From NCBI GenBank assembly GCA_964016885.1, contig OZ024743.1, positions 232,996,001-233,060,000 of the forward strand: a stretch of DNA of 64,000 nucleotides, given 5' to 3'. This DNA comes from Eledone cirrhosa. Its lineage: Eukaryota. Position numbers and translations under genes: made by a program. This document shows, in pieces, positions 5,969-58,736 of the stretch; the stretch's first letter is position 1, and every line of letters starts with the position of its first letter. The notes beneath the pieces are model-generated. The model did not search any database. It was not told the DNA's origin and saw only the letters and a list, made by a program, of their open reading frames with translations.

Positions 5969-6232
5969 ATTTAATTAGAAAGAGAACAACACAATATATA
6001 ACTACTCCATTACCGAAGGTTAAAGGGCCTAGACAATATTAACATACGTCTAGGTCGCTCATCAGAAAGAGGGGTTATGATGAGCGACCTAGACGTATAT
6101 TTATATTGTCTAGGGTCCTTTAACCTTTGGTAATGGAGTAGTTATATATTGTGTAGTTCACTTTCTAATTAAATAGCTCTGTTCTATACATAGAGCACTC
6201 TTTTTTCCTTTGCATTTTTTCGGAAATACTTA
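5969..6232. mobile_element. Fold-back (inverted pLTR) PLE remnant with decayed hammerhead
   Basis: About 95-bp imperfect arms 5969-6064/6078-6174 plus one-sided extension to about 6232; minus strand CTGATGA-GC-GACCTAGAC..GTCTAGG stem II, GAAA decayed; flanked by (TA)n. Confidence 0.7.
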
Positions 6233-6299
6233 ACATATATATATATATATATATATATATATATATATATATATATATATATATATATATATATATATA

Positions 6300-6495
6300 A
6301 CGAAGGAAATGTGGTAAGGAAGCAGATGGACCATAACGCACCAAAGTACTCAATACTTAGAGTAGTAGAGTGGGTAATAGGAACGAGTAGGACCCCAACG
6401 GCTGAGCTCAAGCCGTTTCGACGGCTAATTCTGGAGTCCAGAATTAGCCGTCGAAACGGCTTGAGCTCAGCCGTTGGGGTCCTACTCGTTCCTAT
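6300..6495. mobile_element. Perfect hairpin (59-bp arms) made of hammerhead 3' halves; PLE pLTR derivative
   Basis: 6377-6495 perfect palindrome with 1-nt loop at 6436, containing CGAAAC-GGCT..AGCC-GTT (GAAA plus stem III); extension 6300-6376 matches 38490-38560 in reverse complement. Confidence 0.75.
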
Positions 6496-6669
6496 ATATA
6501 TATATATATATATATATATATATATATATATATATATATATATGTAGGAGGTGAGTTTTATTGTAGTACAATAAAGCAATGCAGATATCGGATAAGAAGC
6601 ACTCTACAGTTTGTAGGACTGGAGTATACATAATATAAGATCAAAATATGGTTAAAGGAGTTCCATGTA

Positions 6670-6736
6670 TTTTATTATGCGCATTTCAAAAACAAACATC
6701 ATCATGCAATAATATTTGTGTTTACATCAGATAAAA
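6670..6736 (-). ncRNA. Hammerhead ribozyme copy in the inverted pLTR (core mutated to CTGATGT)
   Basis: Reverse complement of 8543-8609 with one core substitution. Confidence 0.65.
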
Positions 6737-7460
6737 TATTTAACAAACACACCATCAAATTTTCTTATTCTACATCCTCCAATATTTCCAACATCATCTC
6801 TAAACACAACAATAAAATACTAAATACTAAATCTCTTCCTTCCAACATTGAATTTCATAATAATAGTAATAGTACTCCCGACGTCATTGTAAACCCTAGG
6901 CTAACTTCTGTAAACCCAAATACAACGTCAAACACAACTTCGCTAAATGTTCATAATCCAACTCTAAATCAAGAAACTATTATTCCTATTATTCCTATCG
7001 CAAACAACTTCTCCAATCCAATTCCTTCTATAGATAACACTAGGTCACTCATTAATAATCTCTCTAATTGCAACTGCCGCATTAAAAATAAATGTCCTCT
7101 CAACAACCATTGTCTTGATAAAAACTTAATTTATGAATGTAAAGTTATAACTAGCACCAATTCCTTCACCTATTTTGGCTCCACTTCCACCTCTTTTAAA
7201 GCTCGTCTCTATAATCACCATCCATCTTTTAAATACAAACTTAAAAAACCAACACGGCTCTCTCAGAACTCATATGGTCCTTGAAAGACAAAAACATTAA
7301 ATATACCATCTTTTGGAAGAAGGTTTCTTCTGCATCCTCATACTTGAACAGCTCTCTATCTAAAATCTGTAATCTCTGCCTAAATGAAAAATTTACCATT
7401 ATCTCTAATCTAGATTCTATAATAAATAGACTACAGATTTGTTTTCTATCTGCCTGCATA
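6737..7460 (+). pseudogene. PLE RT thumb/linker plus GIY-YIG endonuclease, frameshifted near 7245-7280
   Basis: ORFs 6718-7284 and 7281-7607 join into a Naiad-type GIY-YIG domain. Confidence 0.85.
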
Positions 7461-8542
7461 AATTCCATAGGACTTTTCACAAAGTATACAGCTAATATTC
7501 AATTCTTTATCAATTTAGAATCTTTTCTCAAAGGCACATATACATACACCTCTTTAAAATATACCCATCTTCCTACCTTACTTCAAAGGGCATTATACAC
7601 TCTATAATACTTGTTTACTCATTACCCTCATTCTATCTTCACCTTGTAAAATCCTTCATAACATATACATTTGTTTTTTTGACGTTAGAATATTCATCCG
7701 CAATTATTATTATTTTTTCTCTCTATCATAAAACTTTTTAATCTCAATTTCATCCTTAATTTATTATTTTTTTCTCCCCATCAACGAACTCATTCTTAAT
7801 ACATATTAACTCTTTCTTCGCACATATTATCAACTCCTTCAATATACAAACATTAACTTCACATTATTTTTCTCAAATCATCTAATACACAAACCTTAAT
7901 AGTTTTTTAATACATATTAACTCTTTCTTCGCACATATTATCAATTCCTTCAATATACAAACTTTAACTTCACATTATTTTTCTCAAATCCTTCTACACA
8001 CAAACCTTAATAATTTTTCTCTTCGTTAATGTTGAAATTGCCACAATACTTATCAACATACACCTTTTGACGTTAGAATATTCATCCGCAATTATTATTT
8101 TTTTCTCTCTATCTTCATACATAAACTCCCTATCTTTCCTCGTACATACTTTTCCCTTCGTTAATTTTCAAATTCTTTTTTCATCCTTTCCACCCACCCC
8201 CCTCCCTAAATAAAATATTTTTTCCTCGTACATATTTTTCCCTTCGTTAATTTTCAAATTCTTTTAATTTATATATTATCTTCCAACGGTTTTCAACCTC
8301 TCTATGTAAAACAATATATCTTCTCTCAGTTATAAAAACTATCTCTTTCTCTCTATCACCCATCTCTCCCTCTCCACCTTCACTCTCATCTCCTCCCCTT
8401 TTTCATCCTTTCCACCACCACCCCCTCTCTAAATAAAATATTTTTCCCAATATCACACATCAATCTAAAACCACTTTTCATATGTTGATTTAAAACTGCA
8501 CTATCCACAAGTGTTTTTTAGCCTTCATATCATGTTCTCCTG

Positions 8543-8609
8543 TTTTATCTGATGAAAACACAAATATTATTGCATGATGATGTTTGTTTTTGAAATGCGC
8601 ATAATAAAA
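8543..8609 (+). ncRNA. Type-I hammerhead ribozyme in 3' pLTR, intact core
   Basis: Stem I TTTTAT/ATAAAA; CTGATGA 8549-8555; stem II AAACACAAATA..TGTTTGTTTT; GAAA 8592-8595; palindromic stem III TGCGCA; ATA triplet. Confidence 0.85.
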
Positions 8610-8749
8610 TACATGGAACTCCTTTAACCATCTTTTGATCTTATATTATATATATATATATATATATATATATATATATATATATATATATATATATAAG
8701 TAGTAACACAACAGTTAGTTCACCATACCAAGAACAATTGTTTCACCTT

Positions 8750-56270: not shown

Positions 56271-56415
56271 CCTTTTCAGAAACTTCAAGATATGTGAAAG
56301 GATGTTATTCTCCGACAATAGACTTGGTTCAAATTCTTACAACAGAGTTTACCCTGCTAAGTGCCTCCAAGTGCTATGTGGTGGTGTTAAGCCAAGCGAT
56401 TATTTAAGCCTACCA

Positions 56416-56609
56416 TAGGCCTGCCAACCTCTAAAAACCAAACGGACAGTACCATGAAAAAAAGTGCCCCAAAACAGGGAGGAATGAGGCAAAATGGGGA
56501 AATGTTATATAATGAAAGCTATACCCATTTTCCCAAGAGAAGACATCTCGCACCGACCCCAAAGTGGGTGCGAGATCTCCCCGTCCGGCGGGGAGAATTA
56601 ACAGGTCTG
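56416..56609. mobile_element. hAT-type MITE
   Basis: Imperfect TIRs TAGGCCTGCCAAC / TTAACAGGTCTG (transition differences only); 8-bp TSD GCCTACCA/GTCTACCA. Confidence 0.65.
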
Positions 56610-56896
56610 GTCTACCATCAAACGATGCCACCGTCTTTTGTGTAATATCTTTTCTGTCGGATATTTCAGCAAACACTAGAATATTTGATATTTGATGTTT
56701 CTCAAACTAACCCAGATAATAAAAGGAAATGTGACAGAATTCTAATCAAGGGCAGAAAGTAAAAACTATGCACTCAAGTGACGTTCGTGCCATCTGTTCA
56801 AAACATTATTGGAAAAGATGTCGATCTGAGTAAAATTCCTAGATAATAAAATTAATAAGCAAGATTTTGTGAAAGGTTTAAAATAGTAATAATGAT

Positions 56897-57110
56897 ATTG
56901 GTTTCTGATTTAGGCACAAGGCCAGCAATTTTGGAGGAAGGAAAAGTCGATTAAATAGACCCCAGTGCGTGACTGTTACTTTATTTTATCGACCCTGTAA
57001 GGATGAAAGGCAAAGCCAACGGCGGCCGGATTTGAACTCAGATCATAAAGGGCCGTAACTCTATGCTGCAAAGCATGGCGTCTGACCCTTTACTGATACT
57101 GCCAATCCAT
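56897..57110 (-). mobile_element. tRNA-derived SINE, full length
   Basis: Reverse complement of the family at 30481 and 49420. Confidence 0.85.
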
Positions 57111-57544
57111 TAATAATAATTGATTTACTATGACTGATGAAAGTCAGCACTAACATAGATATAAAGCCGCACCAGACGCAGCATAACTCATTCTCCTCGA
57201 AAAATAGCCCTATTAGGTACACTACGCAGTATATACAAAAAAGCTTTCAACTCAGTCACGCCACTGACACAACTTAACACAACATACAGAGCACATATTA
57301 AATAAAATTACCTTCCACTATAATAACACAAATTGCATATTTTAGTACATATTTTACATGATCAACACCCTCTCCAATACAAATAAACGAAACTTCGCTC
57401 TCTCTCTCTGATTGACCGACAAGATCACAGACCTCATTTGCATGCTGAGTGGAGTGGACCTTGTCAAATCGGACAAAAGAAACAATGACTCCATTAGTCT
57501 TTTCAATTGTTAATATTATCTACCGGTCACAGCTTTTGGCAGAA

Positions 57545-57663
57545 AGAGCAACATGAAATAAAGTATCTTGTTCAAGGACACATCGCATCACCCGGTCCGA
57601 GAATTGAACTCGCAACCTCACGATTGCGAATCCAACTTTCTAGCCTCCTAGCCACGTGCCTTA
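57545..57663 (-). mobile_element. CORE-SINE head
   Basis: Reverse complement of the 3855-3975 tRNA head plus CORE start. Confidence 0.7.
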
Positions 57664-58554
57664 GAAAACCACATATGTTACACAATCATCTTCCCCGTAC
57701 ATAATTCAAACAACACATAGTCAAATATTGTTTGATGAGGATGTGGTATGTGATTATTTTAGAATTCGGTGCAGGCAAATGCGACTTAAGACGACAAATG
57801 CGACTAAAACTGACTATAATACATAGAAATTTAACCTGGAATCTAACGGTTAACAGAAGAAAAAACGATTATAAATCTCTTTGACAACAACAGGAATAGT
57901 GAGGAGAGTGAAGATGATGAGGATTTATTCTAGAAACCCAAAATCTCTGTTAAACATCATTTCGCACATTGACGTATCAAAAGAAACTGATGTTCTGAAA
58001 TATCACAACATTTTAGGGCTTTAACTGAACACAATATCTAGAAATTGCATTAGGAAGATTAACAACTAAAACTTGACTCGTTCTTCAAGCCATTTTGTCG
58101 CAACACTACTGCATCTCTTAAGCCTGCTGATGGCATTGATGACCAGCATGTTGCTTTCTAAGCGGTAGAGATTCACACCATCGGTAGAGATTCACATAGC
58201 TATAGTCTGGTCAGGTTTCTGCCTATCTTCATTGCTGAGGGTCGGGGACCATGAACAATAACACCAATGCTAATCTATATGATGCTGTATGTCTATAATT
58301 CTCATTGGAGAAAAAAGTGATGCAGGTGGATCCCGAATCCTCGTCCGACTACTACACAGAAGCTAGCTACCAAGTTGCAGATCATCCGCCTTCATCACAA
58401 GGATGAAGCCGTTGGCCACTTGAAAGGTTGGCACCAAGGTGACTAAAGAGTGCCATTTACACCGGTTTTGAAATCCGAGTGATACTTTTCTTAGACAGAC
58501 TGCCTACCAAGTCTAACGAGCACCGTCTACTAGATTGTTTTGTTTCTTTGTATG

Positions 58555-58736
58555 TTTATTCCGGGTTCACTCGGGGTTAACCACAGTAAGTAAGGTACTC
58601 AATACATGGAGTATAAATATTTAATATAGAAATGGCTTCTACAGAACTATAACTGTTTCATTCGGGTAAATCATCGTGATGATTTCTCTCAAAAGAAACA
58701 GTTCTTGTCCTGTAGAAGTCATTTCAATATTAAATA
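58555..58736. mobile_element. Fold-back pLTR remnant of the 32.0/36.2 kb family, inverted at the hammerhead core
   Basis: TTCCGGGTT..GTAAGTAAGGTACTCAAT matches 31993-32038; arms meet at AAATCATC|G|TGATGATTT (about 58676). Confidence 0.8.

Follow-up and report, generated by a model that had tools for sequence, protein, structure and literature searches.

Unequal inverted arms of Penelope-like elements in (TA)n arrays of Eledone cirrhosa and the case for double priming on one RNA

How does a retroelement come to lie in a genome as two inverted copies of one of its parts, one with a tail and one without? The question is raised by a 64,000-nucleotide (nt) stretch of the Eledone cirrhosa genome (contig OZ024743.1, positions 232,996,001 to 233,060,000; in the following the window), which holds ten such insertions at (TA)n arrays, seven of them with coding partners of Penelope-like elements (PLEs). 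In the passages available from PMC8557442 the origin of the tandem and inverted structures of PLEs and of their tails counts among the open questions, and according to those from PMC11167929 it is only partly answered in vitro. Insertions of endonuclease-bearing (EN+) PLEs are described as a partial tandem with an inverted, 5'-truncated pseudo-long terminal repeat (pLTR) and an optional tail of 30-40 bp (passages of PMC8557442; Pen2a_Av in those of PMC3846280), which agrees with what a sequence-only reading of the window had stated for Penelope.

The same reading proposed two priming events, one from the RNA 3' end and one from an internal TA-like site that anneals to the nicked microsatellite. 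Here we report that the arms end at two fixed points, of which the short one is indeed internal and TA-like, that the insertions nearly always combine one end of each kind, and that a start of the long arm at the RNA 3' end does not hold as a general rule. We consider it probable that both nicked target strands prime on one RNA, at a short and at a long site.

Two end points and the pairing of arms

The window was checked by masked self-comparison and by direct reading of the sequence. Inverted, outward-facing arms, one long and one short, are present in 10/10 insertions, as had been noticed from the letters alone; the tail on the long arm measures 39-116 nt and the enclosed body 0 to ~3.85 kb, in line with the earlier estimate of up to about 4 kb. 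The claim that all arms face (TA)n stands for 19/20 ends and fails for the long end at 58556. The arms were sorted into families A (with A2) to H, and the points at which short and long arms end are called the short and the long site.

Genome-wide counts are given as exact words in the 3.0-Gb genome, with the reversed words as control. The short junction of family A has 12,448 exact copies, arms running past the short site number 11,402 and the upstream core word 24,045, with 0 for all reversed controls. A position-ordered sample of family A was taken from 60 regions at core matches along contig C1 to 22.3 Mb, leaving out the last few of 100 listed core matches, together with 11 further loci (loci carry L numbers). 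It yielded 115 arm ends, 53 at the short site, 58 at the long site, 2 read-through and 2 elsewhere. Tabulated in this way the end points are non-random genome-wide, with 111/115 at the two sites, and an alternating array of at least 8 nt follows 104/111 of the site-ended arms. The short site lies at ~ATG+26 and the long site at ~+86, 60 nt apart. Three short ends of family A in the window had been said to stop at one internal point, and they do: those at 11410 and 14609 keep AATAT, and the one at 41903 stops at GTATAAC. Two end classes were also found in families B, C, D, F and G (30-locus samples), with G the most ragged; (TA)n is met by 37/44 classed long or short ends in C and by 20/23 in G, and the remainder includes read-through copies.

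Both sites lie inside the RNA. In read-through copies, which continue past the long end, the long end of family A appears as a second AATAT-C site 60 nt beyond the first. Such copies number 466 by exact word, some of them within one tandem micro-array, and they occur in families C, E, F and G as well. The 5' pLTR can be told from the 3' pLTR by sequence in L126 and L436, and in these loci the inverted long arm agrees with the 5' read-through pLTR and not with the terminal one; as this pLTR continues into the open reading frame (ORF), the long site was used inside the RNA. The read-through copies and these two loci rule out the RNA 3' end as the general origin of the long end. Nor are the arms the 3' end of the element in the usual sense, as had been supposed, since the family A arm is made up of the pLTR and the opening 28 codons of the ORF in the following unit. 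The arm of Pen2a_Av is built alike, from a pLTR and the start of the next unit (passages of PMC3846280). The pLTR as a partial tandem that includes the ORF start can be followed in the read-through copies L010, L016 and L126, and likewise in C, F, G and E. A transcript that starts in a long-ended copy would, however, continue into (TA)n, where it could be primed. Separately, a tandem array with a 46-nt period, made of the long-site junction of family A, was seen at L427-L435 (C1, 132.947 Mb).

From the position-ordered sample 36 two-armed family A insertions were compiled by hand. In this set 35/36 are long+short and 1 is long+long, where independent choice would give about half. Left out were L129 and L140 (short arms with an inverted long stub of 18-21 nt), a divergent-subfamily pair in L134, ~6 insertions in which the inverted piece stops at a point other than the two sites, and ~29 single-armed ones. 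A count by coordinates only, on an overlapping sample, gave 39/44 long+short, and 2 of its 3 long+long pairs are read-through copies. Five other families are long+short in 68/76 cases (B 26/26, C 15/20, D 14/16, F 10/11, G 3/3); 2 of the 5 long+long pairs in C involve read-through copies and 1 exception in D was miscalled. Among 20 regions around read-through copies an inverted arm was found in 6, all 6 of them long+short.

Either arm may be the longer one: in 29 unequal family A pairs it is the long-ended arm in 16 and the short-ended arm in 13. Short-only insertions with TA on either side exist (L134, L149, L389), and full-length short-ended copies also occur. Because either-ended arm may be longer and short-only insertions exist, both sites prime independently. 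The 35 family A centres compared are all distinct, and by alignment 19/36 centres have an overlap of 1-15 nt.

The end sites resemble the target. The alternating-AT runs at 12 end sites measure 4, 4, 3, 2, 1, 2, 6, 4, 5, 5, 3 and 3 nt, which sum to 42 nt versus 14.9 nt from local sequence (p=1.3e-4); this tally leaves out the long ends of B and D, which are without read-through copies. Family D long ends finish in AC and run into (CA)n in at least 6/22 cases of the 30-locus sample, at L340, L352, L353, L354 and L363 into (CA)n and not (TA)n. A conserved tail hairpin as site determinant is not established, as no signal was seen in A, A2, B, C, F, H and the B-like arm.

A common template for both arms

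Arms of one insertion are closer to each other than to arms elsewhere. Among the 20 family A pairs with enough overlap the median arm distance is 2.0% within an insertion versus 6.9% between insertions, and 2/20 pairs are no closer within than between.

Adenosine-to-inosine RNA editing, once reverse transcribed, leaves one-stranded runs of A-to-G changes. In 288 alignments two outliers, L166 and L126, carry bursts of A-to-G changes in the element sense, with 29 and 43 A-to-G and 0 T-to-C in L166. The changes are common to both arms in 27/31 cases in L166, 33/34 in L126, 15/17 in L390 and 3/4 in L391; the bursts of L126 and L390, like that of L166, are free of T-to-C. A word built from the L166 and L126 edits has 4 genome matches, all in those arms; a looser edited word has 9 matches in 6 loci, L390 and L391 among them, and some edited positions may be ordinary subfamily variants. 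In these four loci (contigs C1, C3 and C4) the dense edits keep to the stretch between about -270 and -70 relative to the ATG, which surrounds the hammerhead-like core, and spare the part from -69 to the long end. The runs would reflect the action of ADAR. Private changes, the A-to-G patterns among them, are common to both arms, which makes a single RNA molecule the likely template of the two.

In the palindrome L393:1180-1691 one arm shows A-to-G and the other T-to-C changes, that is, A-to-G along one genomic strand. This suggests that a palindrome, once complete, gave rise to a hairpin transcript, which was edited and then re-inserted as a whole. Two more antisense-type edited matches are weak or complex.

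Double priming, its rivals and known systems

In double priming, the two nicked (TA)n strands would divide the short and the long site between them, each priming reverse transcription at one, with one RNA as template for both cDNAs. The protein, a predicted dimer according to the available parts of PMC11167929, may hold the RNA region between the two sites. Position and structure would pick the sites, and pairing of 1-6 nt with the self-complementary (TA)n end would set the exact register. If each site accepts one primer only, one long and one short arm result, either free to be the longer. The two truncated cDNA 3' ends would then be joined head to head by end-joining, often over a few common bases. 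Finished palindromes may be transcribed and re-inserted whole, as in L393, and so feed the recurrent small MITE-like forms (MITE, miniature inverted-repeat transposable element). A fuller version, with obligate double priming, evolved TA- or CA-like site words as a second targeting determinant and ADAR-type edits that record the single template, is put forward tentatively, with slightly more doubt than confidence.

Several observations weigh against this explanation. Exceptions to the pairing are 1 long+long in A, 3 true ones in C, 1 in D, and 1 short+short in F. About half of the sampled family A insertions are single-armed and in the ~6 mentioned above the inverted piece ends at neither site. 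Several family B palindromes have one common centre, and the pair counts of that family are therefore not independent events. In 7/35 family A pairs the centre is symmetric within 15 nt versus 1.7 expected (p=0.0013), which fold-back copying predicts likewise; fold-back or later conversion between arms would also give shared edits, and the evidence from strong editing comes from only three insertions, two of them used for word design. An ATATATA decoy ~160 nt upstream joins the array at most 47 times and a TA decoy 27 nt downstream 0 times. These decoys have longer TA runs and yet see almost no use, so that microhomology can be no more than an aid, and TA-likeness alone as the choice of site is ruled out. 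Tail hairpins are significant in 4/11 folds (z below -2: D, two copies of E, and G). Pairing with (TA)n is the weakest link of the model, as PAc (see below) reportedly starts at sites without homology to its target, and family G offers no more than 1-2 nt.

A fold-back route would account exactly for the shared edits, and also for the excess of symmetric centres. Priming would take place once, from a nick and at the long site; the cDNA would copy itself back to the short site, its ATAT end would be captured by the target, and arm inequality would arise later through deletion at the palindrome centre. A single nick suffices for this, and self-priming was proposed for inverted PLE junctions in the accessible text of PMC3846280. 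However, the short-ended arm is the longer one in those 13/29 unequal pairs, by up to ~2 kb. As the short-only and the full-length short-ended copies show, the short site primes on RNA, yet short+short pairs are 0/36 in family A, and this absence counts against fold-back because fold-back that starts at the short site should yield such pairs. We regard this route as unlikely.

The likeness of both end sites to the target would also be expected if the GIY-YIG nickase cut double-stranded intermediates at its own ATAT-like sites, the 'EN-mediated resolution' put forward in the available passages of PMC8557442; in those of PMC11167929 the nickase favours AT-rich sites in its own pLTR-ORF junction. 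However, hardly any ends fall at the better TA mimics that lie 160 nt upstream and 27 nt downstream, both tail borders are reverse transcriptase (RT) start sites in vitro (PMC11167929, same passages), and trimming by itself does not explain why a long end is combined with a short one. We regard it as quite unlikely.

Two RNAs held asymmetrically by a protein dimer, with the likeness of the arms coming from a master copy or from later conversion, are improbable. The predicted dimer (PMC11167929, as far as available), the edited sites that differ between arms (4/31 in L166, 2/17 in L390) and the 2/20 pairs no closer within than between insertions speak for this. However, each editing pattern is private to one insertion, so that no edited master with other offspring was seen, and arms across loops of 0.7-2 kb are still 0-0.8% apart (L141, L153, L178).

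In short-read contigs of four runs on L166 the family sequence is covered and the edited parts and the centre are not bridged; contigs and reads of four runs on window 17496-18022 likewise cover the family sequence and do not bridge the centre, and the runs compared may come from other individuals. That palindromes or A-to-G runs are artefacts of assembly or sequencing is nevertheless very improbable: against the two unbridged junctions stand arms that differ by up to 19%, two reproducible ends in thousands of loci and seven families, and, in short-read contigs of other runs, loose ends in (TA)n at either end position of family A, long as well as short.

Double priming also has to be seen beside known systems. 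In the accessible passages of PMC8557442 and PMC3846280 EN+ PLEs show, as here, an inverted truncated arm joined at the 5' side, a one-sided tail on either arm, a tail that overlaps the first ORF codons, and a (TA)n target that hides any duplication. In contrast, tails here reach 116 nt, and the long/short pairing, the sharing of a template and the TA-like ends are counted here and not in those passages. For PAc, a Poseidon element of Anolis, nicking and extension of both strands were seen in vitro at an AT-rich target, and two internal RT start sites bound its tail (available parts of PMC11167929). Here too the spacing of two internal start sites equals the tail and both strands are probably used. 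However, homology with the cut DNA is reported to be lacking at the PAc sites, whereas 2-6 nt of alternating AT are present at most of the sites described here; PAc belongs to a different clade, and pairing within one insertion is not shown in those parts.

In the twin priming that gives 5' inversions of LINE-1 (long interspersed nuclear element 1) the second target strand primes the same RNA via a short match and an inverted piece is joined head to head; the position of the second site varies, and the RNA parts covered by the two cDNAs do not overlap. The sites here, in contrast, are fixed at a spacing of 39-116 nt, and one stretch of RNA yields two copies.

In the passages available, the architecture, with a tail that may sit at either end, and the preference for (TA)n are already published (PMC8557442, PMC3846280), as are two start sites (PMC11167929). 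A literature search found no paper with the pairing rule, arm-shared edits in PLEs or TA-like words at both sites, with the original Penelope and Neptune papers outside its reach and figure supplements of PMC11167929 that may show such junctions; the accessible parts of PMC13282606, PMC3681739 and PMC9977147 added nothing on these three points. New here is a (TA)n-targeting case with an internal long site, with microhomology and decoy controls, that spreads over Hydra-type, Neptune-type and retrozyme-like families.

The insertions, their families and their surroundings

The insertions are described in order along the window, the palindromes without strand. A family D palindrome (5969..6234) has its short arm at the left and its long arm, with a 60-nt tail (6175-6234), at the right; the arms are 88.9% alike. 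In the family B palindrome (6300..6492; arms 99% alike) the long arm is at the left, with a tail of ~80 nt (6300-6379) that resembles the family G tail, and the short arm at the right. No ORF is linked to either, and in 60 loci of 3 kb none was linkable to families B and D. The family C insertion (6544..8646, + strand, arms 98% alike) runs from an inverted long arm (6544-6736, with an 89-nt tail at 6544-6632) over an ORF end with GIY-YIG (6733-7492) to a direct short arm (8543-8646) with a hammerhead-like core at 8549. The A2 insertion (11410..13417, - strand) has its direct short end at 11410, a core at 11655, an RT/EN remnant at 11957-13300 and an inverted long arm at 13322-13417, whose 47-nt tail (13371-13417) corresponds to ORF codons ~9-22; the arms are 100% alike over 49 nt. 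The family A palindrome without body (14377..14609, arms 95% alike) consists of a left long arm with a 60-nt tail (14377-14436) and a right short arm.

Family E is present as a tandem of ~1.7 units of a ~550-nt non-coding repeat (16284..17202, - strand), which ends at the short site at 16284 and reads through the long site near 16710, and as a palindrome (17495..18023, arms 85% alike) with a left long arm, a 116-nt tail (17495-17610), a right short arm and minimal hammerhead-like cores at 17743 (-) and 17891 (+). In the family F palindrome (30708..31098, arms 99% alike) the short arm is at the left and the long arm, with a 39-nt tail (31060-31098), at the right. The family G insertion (31985..36221, - strand, arms 91% alike) has its direct long end at 31985 with a 72-nt tail (31985-32056) beside a microsatellite-rich 3' region, a GIY-YIG remnant at 35647-36064, an inverted short arm at 36060-36221 and cores at 32116 (-) and 36162 (+). 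The larger family A insertion (38615..41903, - strand, arms 96% alike) starts with the direct long end at 38615, where a tail of ~60 nt (38615-38675) equals ORF codons 9-28, followed by a core at 38863, an RT and GIY-YIG remnant at 39072-41706 and an inverted short arm at 41733-41903. An additional B-like long arm (38410..38568, +) faces the same (TA)n as the long end of this family A insertion. In the palindrome of family H, a subfamily of G (58556..58733, arms 81% alike, tail 65 nt), the left long arm lies outside (TA)n and the right short arm runs into it. The tail is thus on the inverted arm at 6544 and 11410 and on the direct, ORF-carrying arm at 31985 and 38615.

The many PLE families assumed by the sequence-only reading shrink to 7/10 window insertions, in which RT or GIY-YIG coding partners were found (families A/A2, C, F and G/H); E is a ribozyme-bearing non-coding tandem, and B and D stand without an ORF link. 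By their motifs the former are classed as putative EN+ PLEs, with a single ORF that encodes RT plus a GIY-YIG domain at the C terminus. The family A ORF has ~1,250 codons with one frameshift (copy L126), and its protein gives weak matches to RVT_1 (E=9e-4) and to a GIY-YIG homing endonuclease domain (E=0.29). The linker reads CTNRKCIIC, and the sequence also shows two Cys within the core and two His. The family F body (L378) has, by eye, a Neptune-like endonuclease. According to the motif list in the available part of PMC8557442 (CX2-5CxxC linker and CCHH), A and F would be of the Neptune/Nematis type.

The open frames of C and G (821 aa and 758 aa, L365 and L384) are 37% alike and show DKT, a CxCx5C linker and CxxC plus CxH around a conserved E/N, and CCHH is absent. 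Pfam and PDB gave no informative match for the family C protein, and its identity therefore rests on motifs. By the same motif list C and G/H are assigned to the Hydra type; they share motifs, hammerhead-like core and (TA)n target with the Hydra clade of those passages, whereas the RWK position reads RWT/RWR in C and G/H. The family G tail lies upstream of the probable start codon. Family G words also sit in a larger repeated block with identical flanks (L245, L249, L251), and the word count of this family (31,808) is therefore inflated and its strands are skewed.

Family E appears retrozyme-like by its tandem non-coding units, which are common, and by the minimal core in one copy, that at 17495. 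With the non-LTR retrozymes in the accessible text of 10.64898/2026.07.22.740005 it shares the ~550-nt non-coding tandem and a minimal type I hammerhead-like core, and it also shows two end sites like those of coding PLEs and long+short palindromes, which that text does not describe.

By pattern, hammerhead-like cores were found in A, A2, C, G and E and not in the window copies of B, D and F; among the 150 of 282 matches listed, an Rfam scan showed no hammerhead, only microsatellite-driven microRNA matches. The hammerhead cut site as a shared 5' end of family A is not supported, as only 2-3/70 arm starts lie at most 15 nt downstream. A cluster of 9/70 family A arm 5' ends lies at -235 to -253 (L126 coordinates), possibly the transcription start of the pLTR; the word just downstream is presumably YY1-like. 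The products are palindromic and MITE-like, as had been expected, and a class II MITE origin was discarded, as the tail makes the ends unequal, the bodies are retroelement fragments and the centres differ in 35/35 family A pairs.

Several other features were seen. A 43-nt piece at 5867-5909, with (TA)n on both sides, matches an element end at 34185-34227, which has its own hammerhead-like core at 34304; the piece may be a tail-only insertion and the 34185 end a nested element. End stubs of 28-90 nt are inverted-duplicated across (TA)n and face their neighbours at 31817-31844, 5198-5226/5330-5358 and 31185-31275. Another Hydra-type RT/GIY-YIG element (62321-64000, -), ~50% alike to family G, is cut by the window end. 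LINE remnants lie at 25721-29044 (-) and 50595-54068 (+), related APE-RT sequences with zf-RVT (Pfam for 25721-29044), and at 44007-46605 (-), with an RTE-like RT. A dispersed repeat of ~180 bp, by eye similar to a short interspersed nuclear element, occurs at 14781, 15851, 19985, 30484, 48356, 49224, 49435, 49990 and 56961, and a remnant at 8700-9040 resembles, by eye, a mariner-type transposase C-terminus.

For annotation these arms matter by number: in this genome three families alone account for ~24,000, 15,700 and 4,700 exact arm words. Small palindromes of these families would be annotated wrongly as MITEs or as microRNA hairpins. The pairing, single-template and start-site patterns hold in at least two PLE clades and one non-coding derivative. 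The pairing rule, the single template and the target-like words at the start sites are three concrete predictions for the in vitro system.

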